A stretch of 64,000 nucleotides of DNA, taken from a virus. Its lineage: Duplodnaviria > Caudoviricetes. Position numbers and translations under genes: made by a program. Every line of letters begins with the position of its first letter. Positions within the stretch are counted from its first letter, which is position 1. The stretch lies in IMG/VR virus record IMGVR_UViG_3300031992_000040, positions 44,675 to 108,674 of that record. One strand, 5' to 3'. Below the pieces are notes generated by a model that made no database searches, had not been told where the DNA came from, and saw only the letters and a list, made by a program, of their open reading frames with translations. Shown piece by piece: positions 9,774 through 42,057 of the stretch.

Positions 9774-11702
9774 GTGTGTATGTTAATACCAAAAGATAAA
9801 ATAAATGCCGCTAAGGCTAAATATGGTGAGAGAGCCATACAAGAAATAATGGAATATTTCGGTGAGGGTTCTTATATAAGTGGCAAGAAAGCTTATTCTT
9901 GCCCTTATCATATAGACAAGACTCCTTCATTTGTTTGGAACGAAAAAAATAGTTCAATGCATTGTTTTAGTTGTGGAAGAAACTTTGATATAATTGATTT
10001 ATATATAGCTCAAGGAATGACATATTTAAAAGCCATTGAAAAATTGTTTGATAATGTAGATGAGGAATTTACTTTTGGTAACACATATAGCTACAAAGAT
10101 GACAATTATAGATATCCTAAAAGAGAAAAAGAAGACAGAACTAATGTAGAAGAATATTTAGCGCTTAGAAAATTAAGTGCAAAAACATTAGATTATTTAG
10201 ATATTCAGAGCGATAAGAGCGGAAACATAGTATTTCATTTTTATGATGAGAACGATATTCTTAAAACTGTTAAATACAGAGTTGGACACGTTTTTAATAA
10301 AGATAAAGATAAAAATAAATGTTGGGCTCAAAAAAATGCAGATTTTGCACCAATTTTATTTAATATGAACAGAGTAGACCCATCGAAGCCACTTGTTATT
10401 AGTGAAGGGGAACTAGATTGCGCCTCTATTGTGGAAGCCGGTTATAGTAATGTTGTTTCTGTTCCTAATGGATGTAATAATGCGCAGTGGATAGAATATA
10501 ATTGGGATTGGCTTGAGCAGTTTGATAAAATTATTTTATGGTTTGATAGTGATGCTCCTGGTAAAAAAGCAAGAGATAATATAATGCATCGACTTGGAAC
10601 TTGGAGAACTTATTATGTTGAAATTATGGATAAAGACACCACAGAAAGCGGTAGACCAATAAAAGATGCTAATGAGATATTATATTATAAAGGAGCAAAT
10701 AGAGTTCTTGACTATATTGCAAAACCATTGGATGTTCCGATAGACAATGTATTAGATTTGGCTACTGCCGAAGAATTTGATATAGAAAAAACTGAGGGAC
10801 TTTATACTGGAATAAAAGATTTAGATGACAAAATTTATAAACTTGTTTTTGGAACTTTAAATATTATTACAGGGAAAAGTGGTTCAGGAAAAAGTGTTTT
10901 TGTTAATCAGGTTGCCATTTGCCAAGCTTTGAATCAAGGGTATGATGTCTTTGTATTTAGTGGAGAATTGCCGTCTCCAGTATTAAGAAATTGGGTTGAA
11001 GTTAATATGATTGGCCGAGACTATATTACGATGAAAGATAATCATATTAGAGTATTAGATTCCGAAAAAAGAAGGCTAATGCAAAATTGGTATAGTGGTC
11101 GAATACTTGTTTACAACAATGATGTTGATACTACTGCAAAAAGTATTTTAATAAAAATGGAAGAACTTGCTAGAAAATGTGGAACCAAAGTTTTTTTAAT
11201 AGACAATTTAATGATGGTTGATTTAGAATGTCAAGAAAATGAAAGGTTGCAAGCAGAAAAAAGATTTGTGAGCGAATTAATATTCTTTGCAAAAAAATTT
11301 AATGTTTTGGTATTTTTGGTTGCACATCCAAGAAAAACAATGGAAACAAGATTAACTAAAGAAGATATTGCCGGTAGTGGAAATATAGTTAATTTAGCCC
11401 ATATGGTTTTTAGTGTTCACAGATATACCGATAAAGAAAAAGAAGGAGAAATGAACCTCAGAGGTCAGTATGTTAAAGGCAAAGAACCAATAGAATATGA
11501 TACTTGCATTGAGGTATTAAAAAACCGTATTACGGGAGTTTTACCGATGACCAAATTGTATTTTGATTATAATTCATATAGATTTTATAGAACTCCTTCA
11601 GAATTATGGTTTAGATATGGTTGGAATAAAAGCACTGAACCTTTAAACACAAATGACCCAAATCCTCACGGAATATCGAGTGGGGGTGATAGTCCATTGT
11701 GA
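9774..11702 (+). CDS. Bifunctional primase-helicase (CHC2 Zn finger + TOPRIM + DnaB/Twinkle-like helicase)
   Basis: CPYH...CFSC; SEGELD and FDSDAPG TOPRIM motifs; GKSGSGKS, IDNL, VAHPRK, LKNR. Confidence 0.9.
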   Translation: MCMLIPKDKINAAKAKYGERAIQEIMEYFGEGSYISGKKAYSCPYHIDKTPSFVWNEKNSSMHCFSCGRNFDIIDLYIAQGMTYLKAIEKLFDNVDEEFTFGNTYSYKDDNYRYPKREKEDRTNVEEYLALRKLSAKTLDYLDIQSDKSGNIVFHFYDENDILKTVKYRVGHVFNKDKDKNKCWAQKNADFAPILFNMNRVDPSKPLVISEGELDCASIVEAGYSNVVSVPNGCNNAQWIEYNWDWLEQFDKIILWFDSDAPGKKARDNIMHRLGTWRTYYVEIMDKDTTESGRPIKDANEILYYKGANRVLDYIAKPLDVPIDNVLDLATAEEFDIEKTEGLYTGIKDLDDKIYKLVFGTLNIITGKSGSGKSVFVNQVAICQALNQGYDVFVFSGELPSPVLRNWVEVNMIGRDYITMKDNHIRVLDSEKRRLMQNWYSGRILVYNNDVDTTAKSILIKMEELARKCGTKVFLIDNLMMVDLECQENERLQAEKRFVSELIFFAKKFNVLVFLVAHPRKTMETRLTKEDIAGSGNIVNLAHMVFSVHRYTDKEKEGEMNLRGQYVKGKEPIEYDTCIEVLKNRITGVLPMTKLYFDYNSYRFYRTPSELWFRYGWNKSTEPLNTNDPNPHGISSGGDSPL

Positions 11703-13756: not shown

Positions 13757-16700
13757 ATGAAGTATTATAACTATCATAAGCACGACCATAAAGGAAACCC
13801 GGTTTCTTTAGATGTTGTAGTTAAAATGGAAGATTATTGTAAAAGAGCTATTGAATTAGGGCACGATGCTGTATTTACGACTTGTCACGGACTTCAAGGA
13901 GATATATTTGAAGCAACAACATTGGTTCATCAATATAATTTAAAATTAATTGTTGGAGCCGAACTTTATTATGTTCCAGACCGAAAAGAAAAAGATAGGA
14001 CAAATAGGCATATTATTTTAATAGCATTAAATCACGATGGAATAAGAGAACTAAATTCTATCATATCAGAATCTTTTATTACAGGGTTCTATTATAAACC
14101 AAGAATAGACCACGAACTTTTATTTTCTTTAAATCCAAAAAACTTTGTAATAACTACTGCTTGTATAGCGGGATTGTGGGAAGATGAACCTTTAATTAAG
14201 GAATTGAAAGAACATTTTGGTTTTAATTTCTTTTTAGAGGTTCAAGACCATAATTCTGAAAAACAAAAAGAGGTTAATCGAACAGTTTTAAAATTTAGTC
14301 AAAAATATGATATAAAAATAATACACGCAAATGATAGTCATTATATTTATCCAGAAGATGCGGCTTATAGAAATTTATTTTTGAGAGCCAAAGAAATATT
14401 TTATCCTGAAGAAGATGATTTTATATTGGATTATCCAGATTCAGATGAAATATTAAAAAGATATGAAATACAGGGCATATTAAATAAAAACAAGGCTATG
14501 GAGGCGCTTGAAAATACATTAATATTTGAAGGTATAGATTGTAGTGATTATATAAATGATGACATTAAATTACCATCTGTATCAGAAAACCCAAATGAAG
14601 ATTTAAAACAAATTATTAATGAAGCCTGGAAAAGAGAAAAAGATAAAATTCCAAAAGAAAGAATCAAAGAATATTTAGAAGCAATAAGATATGAATTTGA
14701 CATTATTGAAAAAACTAATATGGCAAACTATTTCTTAATTGATTATAACATTGCAAAAATTGCAAAAGAAAAATATGGAGGAGTTTTAACTAATACGGGA
14801 AGAGGTTCTGCTCCATCGTTTTATATAATTAATTTGTTAAGATTGACAAACATTGATAGATTGCAATCACCAATAACATTATTCCCAACAAGATTTATGT
14901 CTGTGGAAAGAATATTGGGGGCTCGCAGCCTTCCTGATATAGATTTAAATACTGCGGATGCTGAACCATTTATTAAAGCTAGTAAAGATTTGTTGGGAGA
15001 GAATAATTGCGGTTGGATGCTTTCTTGGAAACCACTACAAGAATCTTCTGGATTCAGATTATATTGTAAAGCAATAGGTTTAGACATTTCTGAATATAAT
15101 GAAATAGCCAAAAATCTTGATAAATATAAAGACGACCCAGAATGGGCACCAAGAATAAAAGATAGTTCGGTATTTATTGGAGTAGTTGAAGGAATATCTG
15201 AATCTCCTTGTAGTATGCTTTTACATTCAAAAGATGTTAGAGAAGAAATAGGAATGATAAAAACTCCTAATGGCAAAATTTGCTGTATGCTAGATGGTTA
15301 TAATTGCGATAAATATAAATATTTAAAAAACGATTATTTAACCGTTACTGTTTGGGCTATTATTAGAGATGTTTGTAAATTGGCAAATATTGATATTCCA
15401 TCAATAGAAGAATTAAATAAGCTTTTGGATGAAAAAACTTTTGATATTTATAAGGAAGGGTTGACTTGTTCAATAAATCAAGCGGATTCCGATTATGCAA
15501 CTAATTTGGTTATGAGATATAAACCTCAATCCGTAGCAGAAATGTCTTCTTTTGTTGCAATAATCAGACCGGGCTGTGCGTCTCTACTTGAAGATTTTAT
15601 AGATAGAAAACCATATACTACTGGCGTTAAAGCACTTGATGATATTTTGGAGGACAGTGAACATCGACTTATTTATCAGGAATCCATAATGAAATATTTA
15701 ATATGGTTAGGTGTTTCTGAATCTCAATCTTATGACATTATCAAAAAGATAGCGAAGAAAAAGTTTAAAGAGCCAGAATTAAAAGAACTAAAGGAACAAC
15801 TTTTAGATGGTTGGAAAAAACAGGTTGGAGAAGAAAATGGCTTTGAGGAAACTTGGCAAGTAGTAGAAGATGCTGCAAAGTATTCTTTTAATGCGAGCCA
15901 TTCACTATCTTATGCTTATGATAGTTTATATGGGGCATATTTAAAATCACATTATCCATTAGAATATTATACTGTGGCGTTAAATTATTATAATGGTGAC
16001 ACTGATAGAACTGCAAAATTAACAAAAGAACTTTCATATTTTGGAATATCTGTTGAAAAACCTCAATTCAGATATTCTATTGATGAATATTTTATGAATA
16101 AAGAAACAAACAAAATATACAAAGGAACTCAGGCCGTTAAGTTTATTAATAGTCAATGTTCATTATATTTATATAGTTTAAAAGATAATAAATATGATTA
16201 TTTTGTTGATTTATTGCGAGAAATATCAGAGGCAAAAACAGAAGATAATAAAGCATATATAAATTCAAGACAAATGGAAATATTAATAAAATTACAATAT
16301 TTTGAAGAATTTGGAAAAAATTTAAAGCTTTATAATATTTATCAAAAATTCTTAAAATTATATGGTAGAAAAACCATACCAAAAGATACTATTGAAGAGT
16401 ATAGTATTCCAGAAGATGTTCTTCAAAGTGAACTCTTTACTCAAACAGAAAAGCAATATAAACTTTCTGATTCTATGGCCGTTCTTAGAATAATAGAAGA
16501 AAGAGAAGAAGATAAAAACTTTGATATAAAAGACCAAATAGATTTTGAAAGTGAAGTTTTAGGCTATATAGGCATGACTTATGATGTAGATAAAAGAATT
16601 TGTTATGTTTTAAATGTAGAAACTAAATTTTCACCAAAAATAACTTTATATTGCTTACAAAATGGGAAAAATGTTATTTGTAAAATAAACAAATCAATGT

Positions 16701-16852
16701 ATTCAGCTAACCCTGTAAAAAAAGGAGAAATAATTCAAGCCATCAATTTTGAACAAAGATTTAAACAGATAAAAACAGAGACTGGATGGCAAAAAACGGA
16801 TGAGAAGGAATGGTGGCTATCTCAATACAAGATACTAACTGAATTTAAGTAA
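13757..16852 (+). CDS. dnaE: DNA polymerase III alpha subunit (family C)
   Basis: PHP domain (HKH, NDSHY), GRGSA, PDIDLN, YSFNASHS. Confidence 0.92.
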   Translation: MKYYNYHKHDHKGNPVSLDVVVKMEDYCKRAIELGHDAVFTTCHGLQGDIFEATTLVHQYNLKLIVGAELYYVPDRKEKDRTNRHIILIALNHDGIRELNSIISESFITGFYYKPRIDHELLFSLNPKNFVITTACIAGLWEDEPLIKELKEHFGFNFFLEVQDHNSEKQKEVNRTVLKFSQKYDIKIIHANDSHYIYPEDAAYRNLFLRAKEIFYPEEDDFILDYPDSDEILKRYEIQGILNKNKAMEALENTLIFEGIDCSDYINDDIKLPSVSENPNEDLKQIINEAWKREKDKIPKERIKEYLEAIRYEFDIIEKTNMANYFLIDYNIAKIAKEKYGGVLTNTGRGSAPSFYIINLLRLTNIDRLQSPITLFPTRFMSVERILGARSLPDIDLNTADAEPFIKASKDLLGENNCGWMLSWKPLQESSGFRLYCKAIGLDISEYNEIAKNLDKYKDDPEWAPRIKDSSVFIGVVEGISESPCSMLLHSKDVREEIGMIKTPNGKICCMLDGYNCDKYKYLKNDYLTVTVWAIIRDVCKLANIDIPSIEELNKLLDEKTFDIYKEGLTCSINQADSDYATNLVMRYKPQSVAEMSSFVAIIRPGCASLLEDFIDRKPYTTGVKALDDILEDSEHRLIYQESIMKYLIWLGVSESQSYDIIKKIAKKKFKEPELKELKEQLLDGWKKQVGEENGFEETWQVVEDAAKYSFNASHSLSYAYDSLYGAYLKSHYPLEYYTVALNYYNGDTDRTAKLTKELSYFGISVEKPQFRYSIDEYFMNKETNKIYKGTQAVKFINSQCSLYLYSLKDNKYDYFVDLLREISEAKTEDNKAYINSRQMEILIKLQYFEEFGKNLKLYNIYQKFLKLYGRKTIPKDTIEEYSIPEDVLQSELFTQTEKQYKLSDSMAVLRIIEEREEDKNFDIKDQIDFESEVLGYIGMTYDVDKRICYVLNVETKFSPKITLYCLQNGKNVICKINKSMYSANPVKKGEIIQAINFEQRFKQIKTETGWQKTDEKEWWLSQYKILTEFK

Positions 16853-27294: not shown

Positions 27295-27322
27295 AAAAAA
27301 AAGAGGTTTATGCCTCTTTTTT
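27295..27322. terminator. Bidirectional terminator where the two arms converge
   Basis: A-run-GAGG-TTTATG-CCTC-T-run hairpin overlapping the TROVE stop codon. Confidence 0.7.
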
Positions 27323-28939
27323 ATTTTCTTTATTATCCCATTGTTTAATTAGTTCTGATGCAAATAATAATTCTTTTCCTGTCCATCCGTATAGAACGGC
27401 TCCTCTATAAATATATTCTGGTATTAAAGCATTATTATATCCTGCTGTTTGTATCATAAACACGTTTACTTTTGGATTCACTTCTGCCCTATATTTATTG
27501 ATTAACTTCATTACATCGACATATTTACCACTGTTATAGTTTGTTCCGTCTATAATATAATCATCCGTTTTACCATACAAACCACCGTGTCCAGCTTGTT
27601 GGTCTGAATAAATAAATATATTATCATACCAGGTTTTTTCTCTTATTGCTGAAAGGAAGAACAACCAAATACCATTTTCTGTGCCCATACCGATTCCTTG
27701 ACGAGATTCTTCTGATATTTTTTTTGCCTCAGACAGTATACCATTTTTCTTTAATATAGAGTATTCTTTTAATCTATCTCCGAATGCTCCAACATATCCT
27801 TCATCACTTCTATGAGCAACCATTACAGAACTTAAATTACCTATTTCCGCTACTGTTACACTTCCGTATTCACTAGGTATTGCTCCCCAAGCACTTCCAG
27901 AATTGTCTGATAAACACATTGTTTTACCTTTTAACATAGGAAGTTCCCTAGAACTAATATCTATACAATCTTCTAAAGCATCCATAATGCTAGCTTTAAA
28001 ATTAATTTCACTATTTGAACATTTTTCAATTCTTTGTAATGCCGTATAGTATCTAAAAGGAAATTGTTTACCCTTCTTAACCCCGCTCTTTAATTTTGCT
28101 AATATATTATCTTTTTCTGATAAATCATCAATCTCTTTAAATATATTCTTTAAATTTCTTAGCAAGGCCATATGGGGCATATCAATAGTTCTCAATATTT
28201 CTTTAAAAGATTTTCCTTCAGAACGTAAGTTTTCCCAGGTCTTATCTTCTTCTTCAATTTCTATTGTTCCCGTAGTCATCAATTCATTTATTGCTGAATT
28301 CTTTGCGTGACAAATTCTTATTACATCTATAAGCCCAATATCTTTATTTTTATATTTTGCAATCTCATATTTTGTCATCTTTTCAATTCTATCAGCCCAA
28401 GAACGCTTTAATATTGATGGGATTTTATTTTTAGATTTATTATAATATAAGTAAAAAGAAAGTTGAGACGCAGGTTCATCGGCTCTGGCCATAATTTCGC
28501 AATTTAATTGTCTAAATAATGATGGATTTTCTTTTGAAAATTCTTCTCTTTTTGGATTTATTGCGGCTAAAACCATTATTACTTGTGGGTTTAATCTCAT
28601 ATAAAAGTTATTACGCAATTCTTTTGCCCACTCAATAGTTCCCATAAAATCATATTCTAATGAGTCTTCAATGGCCATAATCATTATTTCAGAAGTGGTC
28701 TTATTATCTGGAAATAAAAATAAACCATAATCTTCTACCAATCTATGATATTTAAATTTACCATCTCTAATACCAGAATTTCTATAATAAGCAGGCTCTC
28801 CAAATATTGAAGATGCTGAAATCATTTTTAATGTTTCAAGCGGGTCAAGCTGATAAGATACGCCACCCATAAAGTTTTCTACGGGTTTTTCTTTTCTAAC
28901 CTTATCTTCCCAATCTACAATTTTGCTTATTTTACTCAT
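27308..28939 (-). CDS. Ro60/Rsr-like TROVE + vWA RNA-binding protein
   Basis: 543 aa; N-terminal NFMGG.SY, RADEP, MALLRNL, KQFPFRY, MIDAS-like DNSGS, IYSDQQ. Confidence 0.88.
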   Translation of the reverse strand: MSKISKIVDWEDKVRKEKPVENFMGGVSYQLDPLETLKMISASSIFGEPAYYRNSGIRDGKFKYHRLVEDYGLFLFPDNKTTSEIMIMAIEDSLEYDFMGTIEWAKELRNNFYMRLNPQVIMVLAAINPKREEFSKENPSLFRQLNCEIMARADEPASQLSFYLYYNKSKNKIPSILKRSWADRIEKMTKYEIAKYKNKDIGLIDVIRICHAKNSAINELMTTGTIEIEEEDKTWENLRSEGKSFKEILRTIDMPHMALLRNLKNIFKEIDDLSEKDNILAKLKSGVKKGKQFPFRYYTALQRIEKCSNSEINFKASIMDALEDCIDISSRELPMLKGKTMCLSDNSGSAWGAIPSEYGSVTVAEIGNLSSVMVAHRSDEGYVGAFGDRLKEYSILKKNGILSEAKKISEESRQGIGMGTENGIWLFFLSAIREKTWYDNIFIYSDQQAGHGGLYGKTDDYIIDGTNYNSGKYVDVMKLINKYRAEVNPKVNVFMIQTAGYNNALIPEYIYRGAVLYGWTGKELLFASELIKQWDNKENKKEA

Positions 28940-29209: not shown

Positions 29210-29285
29210 TGGTGGAGCATACAGGGGTCGAACCTGCGACCTCCACGGTGCAAACGTGGCGCTCTCCCAGCTGAGCTAATGCCCC
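29210..29285 (-). tRNA. tRNA-Ala(UGC)
   Basis: Canonical 76-nt cloverleaf GGGGCAUUAGCUCAGCUGGGAGAGC...UGC...GGUUCGA...CCA with G3:U70. Confidence 0.95.
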
Positions 29286-29536: not shown

Positions 29537-29610
29537 TGGCAGAGAGCGTAGGAATTGAACCCACTCGACTTGAGATTTGGAGTCTCAACGGCAACCATCG
29601 CCTGCTCCCC
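29537..29610 (-). tRNA. tRNA-Trp(CCA), atypical structure
   Basis: 74 nt; anticodon loop CUCCAAA, T-arm GUGGG-UUCAAUU-CCUAC, G73 and encoded CCA; short D-arm. Confidence 0.8.
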
Positions 29611-34022: not shown

Positions 34023-35219
34023 TTATTCGCTAGCTTTAAAATTATATATTGGCTTTATTATTTTTTCTACTTCAACTGTATCTTTTATACGTTCTAATAT
34101 TTCTTGCATTGGTTTATATACCATAGGTGCTTCATCTATTGTTTCCTCATTTACTGATGTTGTATATATACCGTCCATTGATTTTTTGTAATCATCAATA
34201 TTTAATGTTTGCCTTGCTATGTTTCTTGACATTGTTCTACCAGCTCCGTGTGGTGCAGAATAATTCCAATCTTCATTGCCTTTACCAATGCCTATAATAC
34301 ATCCATCTCTCATATTCATAGGTATAATAACTTTTTCACCTTTTCTTGCTGATATTGAACCTTTTCTAACAATGTTATCTTCAAAATTTATATAATTATG
34401 AATACATTGGAAATAATCTTCACTTAATATACTCATCTCTTTACAAATTTTATAAGCAATATAACTTCTATTTAATAATGCAAACTCTTGACATAGTTTC
34501 ATATCGTGCAAATAATCTTCTCTATCTTTTCCTTCTAAATAACATAAATCTTTTGGCAATTTAGTTTTTCCATTATATTTAGCATTAATTTCTGTTAATA
34601 CTTTTTGTATTTCCTTTTCTCTGCCTTGTTCTTTATATTCTTTAATTACTTTTTGCTTTTCATCGTTCATTTCTTTTTTGTATGAACAATATTCTATCGC
34701 TTTATTTTGATATATTTCGGCAACTTGTTTTCCTAAATTTCTCGAACCCGTATGAATAACTAAATATTTGTTATTTTCATCATCAACATCAATTTCAATA
34801 AAATGATTACCACCACCTAGTGAGCCTAATGACTTTTCTAACCAACCATCTTTATTTTTTAATTCTTTATAACAATATAATTGAGTAAAGTCATAATCTT
34901 TAACTTTTTTTTCATGAACATTCATTCCACTTGGTATATATTTTCTAATAATCTTATCTAATTTCTCTAAATCTAATTCTATATTTCCTAAATTGACACA
35001 TAACATACCACAACCAATATCAACACCCACTATGTTTGGTATTACTTTATCACCTAAATTGCCAGTAAAACCTATTACGCAACCTGCTCCTGCATGAACA
35101 TCTGGCATTATTCTAATTTTACAATCTTTAAATGCTTCTTGTTCTAATAATAAATCAATTTGTTCTTTTGCGCTTTGTTCTATATTGTTTGTAAATATTT
35201 TTAAGTCTTTCATAATCAA
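34023..35219 (-). CDS. rtcB: RtcB family RNA 2',3'-cyclic phosphate/5'-OH ligase
   Basis: MPDVHAG, VGVDIGCGM, GSLGGGNHFIE, HTGSR, HNY, SAPHGAGR, DEAPMVYK. Confidence 0.93.
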   Translation of the reverse strand: MIMKDLKIFTNNIEQSAKEQIDLLLEQEAFKDCKIRIMPDVHAGAGCVIGFTGNLGDKVIPNIVGVDIGCGMLCVNLGNIELDLEKLDKIIRKYIPSGMNVHEKKVKDYDFTQLYCYKELKNKDGWLEKSLGSLGGGNHFIEIDVDDENNKYLVIHTGSRNLGKQVAEIYQNKAIEYCSYKKEMNDEKQKVIKEYKEQGREKEIQKVLTEINAKYNGKTKLPKDLCYLEGKDREDYLHDMKLCQEFALLNRSYIAYKICKEMSILSEDYFQCIHNYINFEDNIVRKGSISARKGEKVIIPMNMRDGCIIGIGKGNEDWNYSAPHGAGRTMSRNIARQTLNIDDYKKSMDGIYTTSVNEETIDEAPMVYKPMQEILERIKDTVEVEKIIKPIYNFKASE

Positions 35220-35366: not shown

Positions 35367-36248
35367 TTATTTTTTTATTATTTGAAACATTTCTGTTATT
35401 GATTTTTTTAATGGATAACCTTCTTTTACCAAAGAACTTTTGTGAAAAGTTTTATTTACTGCGTCTATATAAAAACTCGTTTCTCCATCATTGCCCTGAT
35501 AAATAGTCTTCCATTGTTCTTCTGTAAATATATGTTGTGGCTCTAATTGTTCAATAGCCAAATTATCCAATGAAATCAATTTAAACTTTTTTATATATTT
35601 ATCAAGATTATTCTTTAACCATTCAATTTTACCGTCAACATCTTTGTCTTGTTCTCTGTATTTTATTCCTCTTTCTAAGTTTTTATACCCGAGTATAAGT
35701 ATTTTACAGTTAAATTGTGAAAGATAGTCAAATACATCTTTACCGTGAACTCCTGCAATTAAATGTATTATTGCATTATCATTTTCTGCTACATTTTTCC
35801 ATAGCAAATCAAACCTTGCTTTATATGAAACACCCAATCCTTTTATTAAATCCTCATCAATAAGTTCGTTAATAAGCATAACTTTCTCTACAAATTCTGG
35901 TTGACTTACAGTCATATTTGCTATTATACCTTTTTCTTTCAATTTTCGTAAAAATGGTTTTAAATCTGGGTGAGTAGTGACAGAGCCACCACCAATAGCA
36001 CACTCTTCTCCTGCAATCATAGTGTCAATAAAATCTAGGTTCATAATATCTGCGTGCTTACCTTCTTGTGTGCAACCAGCATAACAATATGGACAACCGA
36101 CTTCACAATATTTAGTTATACAAAGGTCTATACTTAAAGGATATTCTAAATTTAGTTTCTCGTGGTCTGGATAATCCACAATTCTTGTTCCATCATCAAA
36201 AATGGATACTTCTGCATTTCCATTTTTATATTTATTAAGCAACTTCAT
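35367..36248 (-). CDS. Radical SAM enzyme (no SPASM domain)
   Basis: CEVGCPYC CxxxCxxC motif, AIGGG, ANMTV. Confidence 0.85.
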   Translation of the reverse strand: MKLLNKYKNGNAEVSIFDDGTRIVDYPDHEKLNLEYPLSIDLCITKYCEVGCPYCYAGCTQEGKHADIMNLDFIDTMIAGEECAIGGGSVTTHPDLKPFLRKLKEKGIIANMTVSQPEFVEKVMLINELIDEDLIKGLGVSYKARFDLLWKNVAENDNAIIHLIAGVHGKDVFDYLSQFNCKILILGYKNLERGIKYREQDKDVDGKIEWLKNNLDKYIKKFKLISLDNLAIEQLEPQHIFTEEQWKTIYQGNDGETSFYIDAVNKTFHKSSLVKEGYPLKKSITEMFQIIKK

Positions 36249-36447
36249 TATTTTCCCCCAACTTTCTTAATATATCTAACTTTTTTGCAACTTCCTCATA
36301 AGATTTTCCCATACAAATAGGAATATATCCATTAAAACATTTCTTTTTATATAAATCTTCGTTTATTTTTATTGCTTCTTCTAATGTTATTATATTATAA
36401 GCGTCTTGCTCTGGACTATATTCTCCTAAATAATACATATTAATCAC
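36235..36447 (-). CDS. Hypothetical protein
   Basis: Operon packing. Confidence 0.5.
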   Translation of the reverse strand: MINMYYLGEYSPEQDAYNIITLEEAIKINEDLYKKKCFNGYIPICMGKSYEEVAKKLDILRKLGENNEVA

Positions 36448-36860
36448 CTCTCTTTAAATATTTTTCTATCAATCCAAAAGAAAATGATACCACCAATTAA
36501 ATTGGCTATTATTGTTTCTAAAATAGTATTTGTATGCAATAAATACAATACTATAGCCAAAGTAGGTGTGCTAAGTTGCCATCTAAATAAATACAGTAGA
36601 AACTTTTTTATAGTTAATTTCCCTTTTCCAAAACTTCTTTTATTAATAAGTTCTACTAATTCTAAATTTTTATTATTTGCTCTTTCTAACTCTTTTGTTG
36701 TATCACATAAATCTTTTGCAAAAGCCTTTATTCCTTCATCTTTTATTTTTATAATATCATTTAATCTTTCAATTTCTTTCTTGTATTCTTCTATTGTTGG
36801 GTCTTGCCATCTTGTTAAAACCTCAACTTCTTTTCCATCATCTGCCATTATTCCTCCCAA
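36444..36860 (-). CDS. Coiled-coil protein with C-terminal membrane hairpin
   Basis: YLFRWQLSTPTLA...IANLIGGIIFFWIDR. Confidence 0.55.
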   Translation of the reverse strand: MGGIMADDGKEVEVLTRWQDPTIEEYKKEIERLNDIIKIKDEGIKAFAKDLCDTTKELERANNKNLELVELINKRSFGKGKLTIKKFLLYLFRWQLSTPTLAIVLYLLHTNTILETIIANLIGGIIFFWIDRKIFKER

Positions 36861-37180
36861 CCAAGTTCATCGTATTGCATTTGTATTGCTAATAATTCTT
36901 TTTTATTAAGTGGAGCACTAATTCTACAATTATGTTTTTTAGAATACGCCCCAATCCAGACTCTTTTTGTATAAAATCTAAATTCTATATCTTGTATAAA
37001 GTCTTCGTTTTCACTACGGTATAATATATACGGTTCATCCTGCGTTACCCAACCACCATTTTCTTTGTTATTAGAAATATTATGGCATATTTTTTTATAC
37101 CCAAGTTCAGCAAATAAATCTTCTGCCATTTTATTTTCCAATAGTGTAACGCAATTTTTGTTCACATCCGTCTCCGTCAC
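36848..37180 (-). CDS. Hypothetical protein (start uncertain)
   Basis: Operon packing. Confidence 0.45.
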   Translation of the reverse strand: MTETDVNKNCVTLLENKMAEDLFAELGYKKICHNISNNKENGGWVTQDEPYILYRSENEDFIQDIEFRFYTKRVWIGAYSKKHNCRISAPLNKKELLAIQMQYDELGWEE

Positions 37181-37412
37181 AATATATATGTCCGCTCAAC
37201 ATATATATATTATTACCGTAGTTAACGTGACGATGGCAATTAGGACATTCTACGGTATAATTTAACTCATCATCACTATTATTTTTATCGATTATTTTTA
37301 TTGGCGGTTGAGATAAACTTGCATATATATATTCATCTAAGCTTCTATCTACAAAATTTTCTCCAGTTATTGTGGCATTTATCATTTTTGCCACCAAATC
37401 TATTTTATTCAT
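37131..37412 (-). CDS. Zinc-ribbon protein
   Basis: CPNC...C-x4-C. Confidence 0.5.
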   Translation of the reverse strand: MNKIDLVAKMINATITGENFVDRSLDEYIYASLSQPPIKIIDKNNSDDELNYTVECPNCHRHVNYGNNIYMLSGHIYCDGDGCEQKLRYTIGK

Positions 37413-37413
37413 A

Positions 37414-38193
37414 TTAATTACCTTTTAAGAATACATCGTTTTCTTTTTCGTATTCTCTTAATTTATCCCAAAACTCTCCAGTTTCAAAAGTATATTCTTC
37501 CCAATATCTATCCCAATATTCATCTTTAATACAACCACGCTCATCTAACCATTCCTTTGGAGGCAATTCTCCTTTTTCGTTCATCCTATGGTCGCCTTCT
37601 TTATAGTCATATTCAAACCCTATTGTTTTAATATTATAGCCACGATATTCATCTCCACCGATAGTTATATAAGAATCTTTATTAAAAATAAATCTTTTTA
37701 AAAATTCATCGTCATTAAATACTTTATCAAAAAAATCTTTTCTATCAGCAAATTCTCCAACGTGGTCAACAAATGGGTGAAACCAACTTCTATCTAAAAA
37801 GTCATATTCTTCACTTTTTTCTCCATTTGTGTCGATACATTTGAAAATATCATTAGGTTTTGGGTCATTTTTATATGGTTTATATTCAACAATATTATAA
37901 ACTTCATTATATATTTTATTTATTCTTTCTTTAAAAGAGTTAACCATATCTTTTGTTATTTGATATTGGTCTTTACTCCACTCATACCCTACTAATTCAC
38001 GAATTGTAATATATAAATAGGCTAATTTCTCATCCCAATCATCGACAAGCCTACTTTCTTCTCTCCCATAAGCATAATTGTGGTCTAAACTATCATTAAG
38101 ATTATAATTTTCTTCATCAACTTCGTGTGGAATAACTAATGCGTGTGTAGAAGAAGAATTGGTTTCAAATGTCCCTTTTCTAATTAATTTCAT
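37414..38193 (-). CDS. FETNSSSTHA-motif protein, paralogue A
   Basis: N-terminal MKLIRKGTFETNSSSTHALVI; FVDH; IGGDE; ends KGN. Confidence 0.7.
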   Translation of the reverse strand: MKLIRKGTFETNSSSTHALVIPHEVDEENYNLNDSLDHNYAYGREESRLVDDWDEKLAYLYITIRELVGYEWSKDQYQITKDMVNSFKERINKIYNEVYNIVEYKPYKNDPKPNDIFKCIDTNGEKSEEYDFLDRSWFHPFVDHVGEFADRKDFFDKVFNDDEFLKRFIFNKDSYITIGGDEYRGYNIKTIGFEYDYKEGDHRMNEKGELPPKEWLDERGCIKDEYWDRYWEEYTFETGEFWDKLREYEKENDVFLKGN

Positions 38194-38553
38194 TTACCAT
38201 CTATCTCCTTTATAAATACTCATAATTATTTTATCATCAAGTTCTTTTTGTTCAACTTCTGCATAATTATTTATATATTCTGGAGAGGCATTTCCATCTT
38301 CAATTACATCATAGTAATCACTTTCCATAAAATCATATTCGTTATCAAAATGCTCCCCATTATAATCTATAGAGCCATCTGCATTTCTTATGATTTTTTT
38401 ATCGTTATCACTTAAATCTTCAACTTCTCCAGTATAAAGATTTAAAACCTTTTCATTATTTTGCCAAGCCTTATAGTCTTCTTTAGACATAATTACAAGT
38501 GCGTGTGTGCTACTACTGTTAGTTTCAAAAGTATTTCTTCTTATTAATTTCAT
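38194..38553 (-). CDS. FETNSSSTHA-motif protein, paralogue B
   Basis: N-terminal MKLIRRNTFETNSSSTHALVI; RBS GAGGTG before the ATG at 38553. Confidence 0.7.
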   Translation of the reverse strand: MKLIRRNTFETNSSSTHALVIMSKEDYKAWQNNEKVLNLYTGEVEDLSDNDKKIIRNADGSIDYNGEHFDNEYDFMESDYYDVIEDGNASPEYINNYAEVEQKELDDKIIMSIYKGDRW

Positions 38554-38563
38554 ATTGACACCT

Positions 38564-39085
38564 CTAATTTCCTTTATAATAATGATAATAGTCTGGGTTA
38601 TCATCTAAATCATCTAAATCATAGCCATCATCATTATCATTTCCAGTTCTTACATAACCATCTAAAATGGCATTAACAAATAATTCTTCATTTCCAAATA
38701 TTTCATCAAGAAAATCCTTTAATTCTTCACAATGGTCTACATAACCTTGCATACTATCTAAATATCTCCATTTTAAATTTCCGTCATCATCATAACTTTC
38801 ATCAAATTTAGGCTCTTCAAATTCTATTTTTTTATAATAAGGACTTAATATATCTATGATTTTTTGTTTATATTCTTCATATTTGTCTGGATAAACGTCA
38901 CATATTGCTGTCCAAATGTAATCGGTAAGAGTATGTTTCCCATATTCCCATCCGAAATCACTAATTCCAAAATGAATAGATGGACGCTTTCCATATAATG
39001 ATTTATCTATTTTTCTAGGAATTGTTATTGCGTGAGTTGAAGATGAATTTGTTTCAAAAGTTTTTAGTCTAATTATCTTTGTCAT
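38564..39085 (-). CDS. FETNSSSTHA-motif protein, paralogue C
   Basis: MTKIIRLKTFETNSSSTHAITI; YVDH; TGNDN; ends KGN. Confidence 0.7.
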   Translation of the reverse strand: MTKIIRLKTFETNSSSTHAITIPRKIDKSLYGKRPSIHFGISDFGWEYGKHTLTDYIWTAICDVYPDKYEEYKQKIIDILSPYYKKIEFEEPKFDESYDDDGNLKWRYLDSMQGYVDHCEELKDFLDEIFGNEELFVNAILDGYVRTGNDNDDGYDLDDLDDNPDYYHYYKGN

Positions 39086-39512
39086 TTTTATCACTCAATT
39101 CTGTATACTCTAAATATAGTTCTTTAAAACTATCATCTATTTGAGCATAATATTCGAACTTCTTTTGTTTATCAATTTCTTTAAATTTGCTTTCCATCTT
39201 TTCTTGAAGTTCCTTCATTCTCTTTTTTCTTTCAATTTCTTCTACCCAGTCTGATAAATTTATATCTTTTAAATATCTATATTCTTTTGCAGAAGAAGGA
39301 ATAAAATCTTCTTGACAAAATTCTTTATATACTTTCCCTATAAAAACTCCACATCCTATATGTTCAACTACTACAAAAGAATCTTCTTTTAATTTTTTAT
39401 TAGATGCCATAATAATACTATCTCTGCTATTAATTCTTAATATCCCACTAGCATATTCTACTGTGTAATAATATATTTTATTTTTACTTTTTTTCATGTT
39501 AATCTCTCCCAA
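39069..39512 (-). CDS. Hypothetical protein interrupting the paralogue cluster
   Basis: Operon packing; C-terminal coiled coil. Confidence 0.5.
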   Translation of the reverse strand: MGEINMKKSKNKIYYYTVEYASGILRINSRDSIIMASNKKLKEDSFVVVEHIGCGVFIGKVYKEFCQEDFIPSSAKEYRYLKDINLSDWVEEIERKKRMKELQEKMESKFKEIDKQKKFEYYAQIDDSFKELYLEYTELSDKNDKDN

Positions 39513-39969
39513 ATTCTATATCTTTTCCGTCTTGTAATACTTCTGCGAGCAAATCTCTTTCTTCATCTACAAGGTCTTCTAAAACTTCGCTTAAACTATG
39601 GTTCCAACTTATAAGTTGATGATTTATTACCGTTAAATCTTCAACATTTCCACTGTATTTAGGAAAAACAATTTTCTTTCCATAATTATCTGAAACATAT
39701 TGCTCAATTCTTTTGAAATCCCAGTTATTTTTTACTTGTTCAATTAAATCTTCATAATCTTCTGCATTATATTGATACCAACTTGCAATATGAGATACCA
39801 AATAAGACACTTTTTCTTCTAGTGTGGTCAAAGTTTCTTCTTCATCAAACCACCTTATCTTTATGTTGTTTCCAAAAGGAGCATAATCTTTTCCCAGTGT
39901 TCTTCCAATAGTTAAAGCGTGTGTGCTACTACTATTTGTCTCAAACACGCTATTTCTAATTTTTCTCAT
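39499..39969 (-). CDS. FETNSSSTHA-motif protein, paralogue D
   Basis: MRKIRNSVFETNSSSTHALTI; INHQ; ends FGRD. Confidence 0.7.
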   Translation of the reverse strand: MRKIRNSVFETNSSSTHALTIGRTLGKDYAPFGNNIKIRWFDEEETLTTLEEKVSYLVSHIASWYQYNAEDYEDLIEQVKNNWDFKRIEQYVSDNYGKKIVFPKYSGNVEDLTVINHQLISWNHSLSEVLEDLVDEERDLLAEVLQDGKDIEFGRD

Positions 39970-41160: not shown

Positions 41161-42057
41161 TTACTCTCCTAAATCATCTTGATGAAGCATTATATTTTTA
41201 ATTGCTTCCTTGTTTGAATGTGCATAAGTATTTGTTATTGCGATATTTGTATGACCAACCATATCACGAATATTACTAATTGGTGTTCCTTTATCTATCA
41301 TTTTTGTAATGAAACTATGCCTAAAAGTATGTGCTGAAACCTCTCGATACCAAGAAATACCTGCTTTCCTAGCAATTTTCTTTAGATATTCATTAAATTG
41401 ATGTAAACCCAAAGTTTTTCCAGTGTTCGTAATAAACAATAGGTCTGTATCTAAATTTAATTCTCTAATAATTCCTTTTCTTCTATTGTTAATAAATATA
41501 TTACACAAATATTGGCAATTAGGTGTAAACCATATTGTTCTTTCTTTATTTCCTTTACCGATTATAGTAGCATAACCATTTTGAATATCTGTGCAAGTAA
41601 TTTGTATCATCTCAGAAAATCTTACACCCGTAGTAGACAATATAGACATAGCCGCTTTCATTTTTGTGTTAATAGCAATATTCATCATTTGTTGCATTTG
41701 TTCTTCTGTTAAATATTTCTTTTCTTTTTGTTGTTGTTTTGGCGGTTTAAGTTGTTGTATCTTTTTATCAATATTATAATCTTTAACAAATTCTAAATAA
41801 TTAAATAATAATTTTACTGAAATTAATTTTATTTTTCTAGTTGCTGGAGAATTATTTCTATCTGTTAACATTTGCAACCAATCTATTATTGTTTTAGATT
41901 TTGCATTAGTCAAATCTTCCATATTTTCTATATTCATTTCCTTAATAAATTCTCTACAATGTTGAGAATAAAATGTAGCACTTTTTTCACTTTTTCCCTC
42001 AACTTTTAATTCATAAATATAGAAATCATCTATTAATTTTTCTAAATCTTTATTCAT
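41161..42057 (-). CDS. Tyrosine recombinase (XerC/D-like)
   Basis: TGVRFSE (R), GKGNKER (K), HTFRH (HxxR), GHTNI..T..Y. Confidence 0.9.
   Translation of the reverse strand: MNKDLEKLIDDFYIYELKVEGKSEKSATFYSQHCREFIKEMNIENMEDLTNAKSKTIIDWLQMLTDRNNSPATRKIKLISVKLLFNYLEFVKDYNIDKKIQQLKPPKQQQKEKKYLTEEQMQQMMNIAINTKMKAAMSILSTTGVRFSEMIQITCTDIQNGYATIIGKGNKERTIWFTPNCQYLCNIFINNRRKGIIRELNLDTDLLFITNTGKTLGLHQFNEYLKKIARKAGISWYREVSAHTFRHSFITKMIDKGTPISNIRDMVGHTNIAITNTYAHSNKEAIKNIMLHQDDLGE

Follow-up and report, generated by a model that had tools for sequence, protein, structure and literature searches.

A radical S-adenosylmethionine (SAM) enzyme and a family of proteins that begin with one shared N-terminal tag constitute a real but uncharacterized enzyme-partner module in large phages. 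We describe it from a 64,000-nucleotide stretch of virus DNA (the window), taken from bases 44675-108674 of an IMG/VR virus record (108.7 kb, 94% complete). In the window, the module lies in one minus-strand gene run and comprises the gene for a stand-alone radical SAM enzyme of 293 residues (35367..36248, -) and four tagged genes encoding P1 (259 residues; 37414..38193, -), P2 (119 residues; 38194..38553, -), P3 (173 residues; 38564..39085, -) and P4 (156 residues; 39499..39969, -). Throughout the loci we compared, the linkage of enzyme and tagged genes is near-obligate: they share a strand and as a rule are neighbors. Our preferred reading, to which we give a little under an even chance, is that the enzyme covalently modifies the tag and thereby matures the two families of proteins, c0 and c1, that carry it.

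All four window proteins start M-(x)-x-x-I-R-x3-F-E-T-N-S-S-S-T-H-A. The open reading frames (ORFs) and their alignment confirm the four genes with a common IR-x3-FETNSSSTHA start that a first-pass annotation had reported, and I4, R5, F9, E10, T11, N12, S13, S14, S15, T16, H17, A18 and I21 are invariant in the window alignment. A six-frame scan found FETNSSSTHA exactly four times in the window, each 8-9 codons past the start, and a profile search of the whole 108.7-kb record found just these four copies. The alignment and the scan place the tag-coding segments, all on the minus strand, at 39913..39969 in P4 (MRKIRNSVFETNSSSTHAL), 39026..39085 in P3 (MTKIIRLKTFETNSSSTHAI), 38497..38553 in P2 (MKLIRRNTFETNSSSTHAL) and 38137..38193 in P1 (MKLIRKGTFETNSSSTHAL). 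The three Ser codons read TCT TCT TCT, AGT AGT AGC, TCA TCT TCA and AGT AGT AGC in the four genes, so that both Ser codon families are used, and the 51-nt tag regions agree at just 30-37 of 51 positions. Conservation is thus at the protein level, as the annotation had held, and selection acts on the peptide.

Across the family, the tag is defined as R-x3-[FYW]-E-[TS]-N-S-S-[ST]-x-H within the first ~25 residues, and all four window proteins carry it. In 218 of 218 non-redundant ORFs selected by motif, the F, E, N, S, S and H are invariant; the T is kept in 213 and the third Ser in 217. The Arg at position -4 lay outside the search pattern used to select tagged ORFs, and it is invariant in all 217 that reach that position. 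Met1 stands 8 or 9 residues ahead of the tag Phe in 218 of 238 cases. When we searched 1.84 billion representative proteins, the tagged family amounted to 2250 clusters (50% identity) at E<=1e-3. The tag may also be internal, as in a tandem tag-body-tag-body protein (L081) and in a fusion in which the radical SAM enzyme precedes tag and c0 body. Salmonella phage Arash has FATNSSSSH and Thermus phage phiYS40 has SMTNSSSAS; in these remote lineages the Glu and His are exchanged and T-N-S-S-S is kept. In phiYS40, the 317-residue gp162 (L086:4433-5386) is encoded directly upstream of the radical SAM gene and overlaps it; the protein starts MRRLKEVRLTSMTNSSSASMLVIP, a degenerate tag without Glu and His, and its body was undetected by the c0 profile. 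The tag also matches the bacterial N-glycosylation sequon (D/E-x-N-x-S/T), which we set aside as a coincidence with no supporting gene.

The linkage of enzyme and tagged genes holds from whichever side it is approached. Of 80 IMG/VR loci seeded with the motif, 73 have an enzyme homologue (33-60% identity) within 10 kb, and several of the enzyme-less loci stop at a contig edge. Seeding with the enzyme gave a strict tag in 79 of 80 loci, and in the sole exception the enzyme lies 183 nt from the contig end; all 175 tagged genes in the enzyme-seeded loci are on the enzyme strand. The nearest tagged gene usually starts 290-530 bp upstream of the enzyme gene. Loci from bacterial assemblies and metagenome-assembled genomes (MAGs) contain the enzyme in 63 of 75 cases, most misses being short contigs. 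Five viral records have no enzyme within 10 kb: three of these (58-96% complete) hold it elsewhere in the record, and the remaining two are fragments (16% and 26% complete). The first-pass annotation had proposed a phage protein-modification system in which the radical SAM enzyme would convert the NSSS motif into a cofactor or cross-link, or the motif would process itself at Ser. This near-obligate co-occurrence in viral, bacterial and MAG loci upholds the link between enzyme and motif proteins and supports that proposal in part. Motif proteins occurring independently of the enzyme, which the annotation had named beforehand as an observation that would refute its proposal, were looked for and are not borne out by the loci.

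Beyond the enzyme and tagged genes, no family occurs in more than 7 of the 44 dereplicated loci, so these two components make up the entire module. The usual operon order is c0, c1, radical SAM gene. Exactly two tagged genes are present in 52 of the 80 enzyme-seeded loci. As many as six accompany a single enzyme gene, which fits one enzyme with many clients; in Lak megaphage B7 the enzyme gene is followed by four tagged genes.

The near-obligate linkage also bears on a very different account of the tag, in which its first ~10 residues (MKxIRxxVFE) would be a T4-like capsid-targeting sequence and the association with the radical SAM gene would be incidental. The T4 internal proteins IPI-III are divergent small acidic proteins that share a ~10-residue N-terminal peptide ending in hydrophobic-x-Glu, and this capsid-targeting sequence is cut by the prohead protease after phi-x-E. 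The tag does have V/T-F-E at positions 8-10. Its most conserved part (TNSSSxH) is located past the putative cut, however, and the Glu is replaced in Arash and phiYS40. The account would leave both the same-strand link to the enzyme gene and the enzyme fusions unexplained, and the window genes stand in a non-structural minus-strand block with RtcB and a recombinase. A further, weak point from one phage is that the particle proteome of Arash, generous at 116 proteins (PMC10585845), does not include gp146, a tagged protein described below. We consider this account very improbable.

Several phages carry reduced or fused versions of the module. Microcystis phage Ma-LMM01 has a single c0 protein, gp130, encoded two genes upstream of its enzyme gp128, and no other tagged gene. 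These two proteins are the cultured-phage members of PHROG 28997 and PHROG 16999, respectively; gp128 is annotated 'Fe-S oxidoreductase', as is phiYS40 gp161, and gp128-130 are unnamed in the Ma-LMM01 transcriptome paper. In Salmonella phage Arash, gp146 (OQ632216.1; L247:5551-6981) is a 476-residue polypeptide in which tag, c0 body and radical SAM enzyme follow one another; it is annotated 'methyltransferase' and holds the only tagged domain in the Arash genome. The reverse order, the radical SAM enzyme followed by LSKQ, the tag and a c0 body, occurs on two metagenomic contigs (L048/L049). That fusions exist in both orders speaks for physical contact between c0 and the enzyme.

Contact of this kind would also be expected if the tagged proteins were parts of the enzyme and not its substrates, and the fusions and 1:1 minimal systems fit a non-substrate subunit role equally well. 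In such a holoenzyme, c0 (and c1) would be subunits and the tag an unmodified docking or active-site insert that helps to bind SAM or a third-party substrate (nucleotide, RNA or DNA), with extra c0 paralogues as interchangeable specificity subunits. Fusions in both orders, 1:1 systems such as the one fused polypeptide of Arash, and the presence of only two body families in a fixed c0-c1-radical SAM gene order all point this way. Against it, nine invariant residues including Ser-Ser-Ser are rarely needed for pure docking in so diverse a family, and no third-party substrate pathway is conserved nearby. We regard a holoenzyme as the main rival to modification of the tag, possible but, on the whole, doubtful; the structures of the two partners bear on it from both sides.

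The enzyme itself has the CxxxCxxC signature of the radical SAM superfamily. C48-x3-C52-x2-C55 is invariant in 42 homologues, and no other Cys among them is invariant or near-invariant, so that the enzyme has neither a SPASM or twitch cluster nor a Cys hydrogen donor. The codons for this [4Fe-4S]-binding motif, C48-E-V-G-C52-P-Y-C55, lie at 36084..36107 (-), and the motif was likewise invariant in a set of 17 homologues. The annotation had thus correctly described a SPASM-less radical SAM gene ~1.2 kb downstream of the tagged genes; the gap to the nearest of them is 1166 nt and contains four small ORFs. By sequence, the enzyme belongs with PHROG 16999 (E 1.3e-41). PF04055 scored 23.6 bits on it, under the 29.5 cut-off, and many homologues have PF04055 on record; an NCBIfam NrdG2 match was weak (E 0.0012). 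Two radical SAM homologues of ~500 residues each (P0347 and P0351) also contain a NUMOD4 domain (PF07463), which suggests that a homing-endonuclease module has been fused to or inserted in the enzyme gene of some phages.

An AF2 model of the enzyme, with a predicted local distance difference test (pLDDT) score of 94.8, predicts a partial TIM barrel that is preceded by a three-stranded beta unit (residues 3-25) and followed by a C-terminal hairpin and helix devoid of Cys. Within the N-terminal beta unit, G10 and G20 are invariant and Y7, N9, N11, D19 and T21 are near-invariant. The partial TIM barrel matched many solved radical SAM enzymes with Z scores of 11-18.6. Foldseek ranked CteB, SkfB, SuiB, DesII, BlsE, EpeE, ChlB and PqqE at the top, and VIA gave Z scores of 18.6 for SkfB, 17.3 for SuiB, 16.5 for viperin, 15.9 for EpeE, 13.9 for anaerobic sulfatase maturase (anSME) and 11 for PFL-AE. 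Only the SkfB and SuiB alignments in VIA span the N-terminal beta unit, and viperin superposed on the enzyme core with the lowest root-mean-square deviation found (3.2 A over 220 residues). Judged from the model, SkfB and SuiB, both peptide-modifying radical SAM maturases, appear to be the structures most like the enzyme, and viperin comes close behind. Profile hidden Markov models (HMMs) of viperins matched weakly: NF038283 scored 15.3 bits, below its family threshold of 180, the PADLOC pVip match (E 4e-4) covered residues 40-110 only, and both matches are limited to residues 38-110 around the cluster motif. For a holoenzyme, the closeness of the core to viperin and the lack of an auxiliary cluster are favorable points; that the best structural matches covering the N-terminal unit are peptide maturases is not.

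By analogy, the module seems to work most like a maturase with clients, as in the systems of SkfB and SuiB, anSME and PFL-AE, and it lacks a defining feature of each, whether the auxiliary cluster, the short precursor, the (C/S)xPxR motif or RVxG. In the SkfB (PDB 6EFN) and SuiB (5V1Q/5V1S/5V1T) systems the genes are adjacent, as here, and one enzyme acts on a peptide recognized by a conserved N-terminal element, as the phage enzyme would. Both of those enzymes have auxiliary Fe-S clusters (twitch or SPASM), whereas ours has three invariant Cys only. They also have a full RRE domain, a winged-helix domain that binds the leader, where the phage enzyme has a three-stranded mini-domain (residues 3-25) that nonetheless falls within the SkfB and SuiB alignments. 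Maturases of ribosomally synthesized and post-translationally modified peptides (RiPPs) act on short leader-core precursors, in contrast to the folded proteins of two conserved families that are the partners here. RiPP systems usually have a protease or exporter, and none is conserved beside the phage module in the 44 dereplicated loci. Finally, unlike the SkfB and SuiB precursor systems, the module is viral.

Two other groups of maturases act on whole proteins. Like the phage enzyme with its several paralogous partners, anSME/AtsB (PDB 4K36-4K39) is a single radical SAM enzyme for several paralogous clients, in which it modifies a Ser or Cys of a short motif. It needs two SPASM clusters and a (C/S)-x-(P/A)-x-R motif, however, neither of which is present in the phage module; there was no sulfatase Pfam match among the tagged proteins, and they are not sulfatases by fold search either. 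The glycyl-radical activases (PFL-AE, PDB 3CB8; NrdG) resemble our enzyme in being small (~250-300 residues) and single-cluster and in being encoded next to a folded partner; they act on a loop of that partner, as our enzyme may on the tag. They target RVxG and place the radical on Gly, whereas the tag has no Gly; no RVxG is conserved in the c0 or c1 body families, and the tagged partners are not glycyl-radical enzymes by fold search. Viperin and the prokaryotic viperins (PDB 5VSL, 6Q2P) superpose on the enzyme with their core barrel and C-terminal region, but they have no tagged protein partners such as the phage module has. PHROG 16999 ('Fe-S oxidoreductase') and PHROG 28997 (function unknown) are sequence bins without a tested function, and we found no source linking the two.

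When we clustered the sequences downstream of the tag, they fell into two large body families, the long c0 (243 ORFs, median 193 residues, in 38 of 44 dereplicated loci) and the short c1 (147 ORFs, median 122 residues, in 36 of 44). Tagged partners as a whole span 92-330 residues. In the window, P1, P3 and P4 belong to c0 and P2 to c1. The annotation had described the four proteins as strongly divergent after the motif. Their lengths do differ, but the divergence is not unlimited, with three bodies of one family and one of the other. Its idea of a family of enzymes or a hetero-oligomer agrees with the two body families, the c0-c1-radical SAM operon and the fusions. A profile-profile comparison aligned c0 and c1 over the first 39 columns only. 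All four window proteins are acidic, with isoelectric points (pI) of 4.35-4.68.

P3 (pI 4.52) shows c0 in its canonical form: the body carries DFGWE, GYVDH and TGNDN and ends in YYKGN. P1 (pI 4.68) represents a large c0 subclass, with FVDH, ITIGGDE and a C-terminal FLKGN, and its orthologues have 223-263 residues. P4, whose ORF translation has a pI of 4.68, belongs to a c0 subclass ending ...FGRD, the same one that is fused behind the radical SAM enzyme in L048/L049; its orthologues of 156-159 residues are numerous. P1 and P4 are derived c0 copies that retain [DN]-H and G-x-D. P2 (pI 4.35) consists of the tag, SKEDYKAW, an acidic linker and then ...MSIYKGDRW. In the nearest relatives (L005-L009, L012-L015), a second c1 copy of 96-150 residues, FETNSSSTHSITMC ('THSITMC'), lies between the other tagged genes and the radical SAM gene; it is directly upstream of the latter in some relatives and is not in the window, where the best match of these short proteins is P2 (E ~1e-11). 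Two apparent exceptions to the family structure were discounted: P0230 resembles a c0-c1 fusion but is scrambled in its middle and probably reflects a frameshift artefact, and P0131, a homologue seemingly without the tag, looks chimeric.

Conserved residues of c0, in P3 numbering, are R6, E11, N13, S14-16, H18, Y56, H118, G148 and D150. Those outside the tag (Y56, H118, G148 and D150) are kept in at least 90% of 82 aligned sequences, and the FGWE segment is a consensus. In c1, the sole non-tag residue conserved in at least 90% of members is one Gly near the C-terminus. The c0 motifs [DN]-H and G-x-[DE] recur in P1, P3, P4, Ma-LMM01 gp130 and Arash gp146. Readings of these motifs as SGNH hydrolase or metallophosphoesterase were rejected, as the motif order differs and no fold match was found. 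The idea that the tag Asn forms an isopeptide with the Lys of the C-terminal KGN was likewise rejected, since the FGRD and c1 classes have no such Lys.

A match to a characterized family, which the annotation had suggested looking for, was found for neither the enzyme nor the tagged proteins in Pfam, NCBIfam, PHROG, PDB or the literature. For the tagged proteins, sequence searches of Pfam, NCBIfam, PADLOC and PDB returned nothing above noise, and no Pfam or NCBIfam family or solved structure was found; ESM Atlas returned unnamed viral clusters only. PHROG 28997 was matched by three of the four, best by P3 (E 2.3e-11). Literature searches returned no paper, in the library searched, that matched the tagged proteins or described their pairing with the enzyme. 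An AF2 model of the c0 protein P3, built with the 82 aligned sequences, had a mean pLDDT of 91. Its residues 1-15, which hold most of the tag, were modeled as coil with a pLDDT of 62-78. The c0 model had no Foldseek match in the PDB at E<=1e-3, its best Z in an exhaustive VIA structure search was just 2.8, and in BFVD it matched one uncharacterized phage protein only. The predicted c0 fold is thus without a match in these structure searches, which does not in itself prove the fold new.

The enzyme-like conserved residues of c0 beyond the tag (Y56, H118, G148, D150 and the FGWE segment) are further points in favor of a holoenzyme, while a tag that is disordered on its own in the model resembles a substrate peptide and counts against one. 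The recurrent motifs [DN]-H and G-x-[DE] also invite the view that enzyme and tagged proteins share a pathway without touching. The tag would then be the proteins' own catalytic or metal-binding loop, its E, N, S and H acting with the distal [DN]-H and G-x-D, and the radical SAM enzyme would make or consume a metabolite of the pathway. We find this improbable. The c1 proteins keep the full tag although they share only the first 39 profile columns with c0; an active site formed from a terminal stretch that is unstructured in the model would be unusual; and pathway neighbors are seldom fused both ways, or linked so strictly with no other pathway gene.

If, as we prefer, the enzyme modifies the tag, the exposed and poorly ordered tag would be the part of each partner that engages the enzyme, a step for which the genomic linkage and the fusions are the basis. 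The tag would probably be added as a beta-strand to the conserved N-terminal beta unit of the enzyme, and the T-N-S-S-S turn would then come to lie at the SAM/[4Fe-4S] site. By abstracting a hydrogen at this site, the 5'-deoxyadenosyl radical would alter one tag residue. With one cluster and no conserved Cys hydrogen donor, Ser oxidation would be the simplest chemistry. The matured c0, with or without c1, would then carry out the actual task of the module; c0 does keep an enzyme-like set of His, Asp and Asn residues. One enzyme serving several partners would in turn freeze the tag sequence. A more specific proposal, which we put forward tentatively as possible but rather unlikely in full, is that the enzyme installs a post-translational group not known before, for example a cross-link or an aldehyde or keto cofactor made from Ser, in T-N-S-S-S. 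This would make c0 and c1 a new heteromeric enzyme class, present in many large phages of Firmicutes, Bacteroidota, Cyanobacteria, Deinococcota and Proteobacteria, with a cofactor derived from protein in a system specific to viruses.

Five observations weigh against modification of the tag. The enzyme core is nearly as close to viperin, which modifies nucleotides (Z 16.5), as to the peptide maturases. Known peptide-oxidizing and cross-linking radical SAM enzymes carry SPASM or twitch clusters, and this enzyme has none. The tag E and H are replaced in Arash and phiYS40. Fusions and 1:1 minimal systems, as in Ma-LMM01 and Arash, are found with subunits or chaperones more typically than with an enzyme and its substrate. 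Lastly, the tagged bodies come from just two families and c0 residues beyond the tag are conserved as well, so the tag could belong to the proteins' own functional site.

Tagged-gene number varies between close strains. Near-identical DNA of the window stretch is present in sheep and cattle gut metagenomes, and a DNA search of the window against phage records gave no match. In one 1448-nt cattle-gut metagenome contig (run X5), the end of P4 (39500) is joined to P1 (38169) with ~28 nt between them, so that this strain is without P2, P3 and the untagged gene that separates P4 from P3 in the window. That gene (39069..39512, -; 147 residues) falls in PHROG 3489, of unknown function, and lies outside the conserved module, with homologues in just 4 of 80 loci, all near relatives. 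The four small untagged ORFs (93, 110, 138 and 70 residues) between P1 and the radical SAM gene (36235..37412, -) are lineage-specific filler; the 70-residue ORF alone has homologues, in 5 loci, and the ORF at 36444-36860 has a hydrophobic C-terminal half. Three contigs of an RNA library match exactly, two of them falling on the enzyme gene and the third on P4, which is no proof of transcription.

Several RNA-related genes lie downstream of the module on the same strand. The gene next after the radical SAM gene encodes an RtcB RNA ligase (34023-35219, -; PF01139, E 2e-58), followed farther on by tRNA-Trp(CCA) (29537-29610, -), tRNA-Ala(TGC) (29210-29285, -) and a TROVE/Ro60-like gene (27308-28939, -; PF05731, E 1.6e-7). 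The TROVE/Ro60-like gene, tRNAs and RtcB possibly form a phage RNA-repair kit. Apart from the window, only 2 of 80 loci have RtcB after the enzyme gene, and we therefore claim no link between the module and RNA repair. RNA-related genes (a 'histidyl tRNA synthetase'-like gene, an RNA ligase, RtcB) recur near the module in unrelated phages, including Ma-LMM01 gp131 (L085:5058-5858), Arash gp143 (L247:7398-7850), L022 and L024, too sparsely for a link. Elsewhere in the window are a tyrosine recombinase (41161-42057, -; PF00589) and the phage's own DNA polymerase III alpha subunit (13757-16852, +) and primase-helicase (9774-11702, +).

The partner family is very large (~2250 clusters at 50% identity) and is tied to a single radical SAM subfamily. 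The large phages concerned infect hosts of at least five phyla and include the cultured phages Ma-LMM01, phiYS40/TMA and Salmonella phage Arash as well as the Lak megaphages. The Arash gp146 fusion and the Ma-LMM01 pair make the role of the tag directly testable at the bench, and widespread mis-annotation of the enzymes ('Fe-S oxidoreductase', 'methyltransferase') could be corrected. Should the tagged proteins turn out to be subunits, they and the enzyme would form a multi-subunit radical SAM enzyme of a new kind whose specificity parts can be exchanged. Should the tag prove to be modified, the module would be the first radical SAM system of viral origin to mature whole proteins, and it would manage without an auxiliary cluster.

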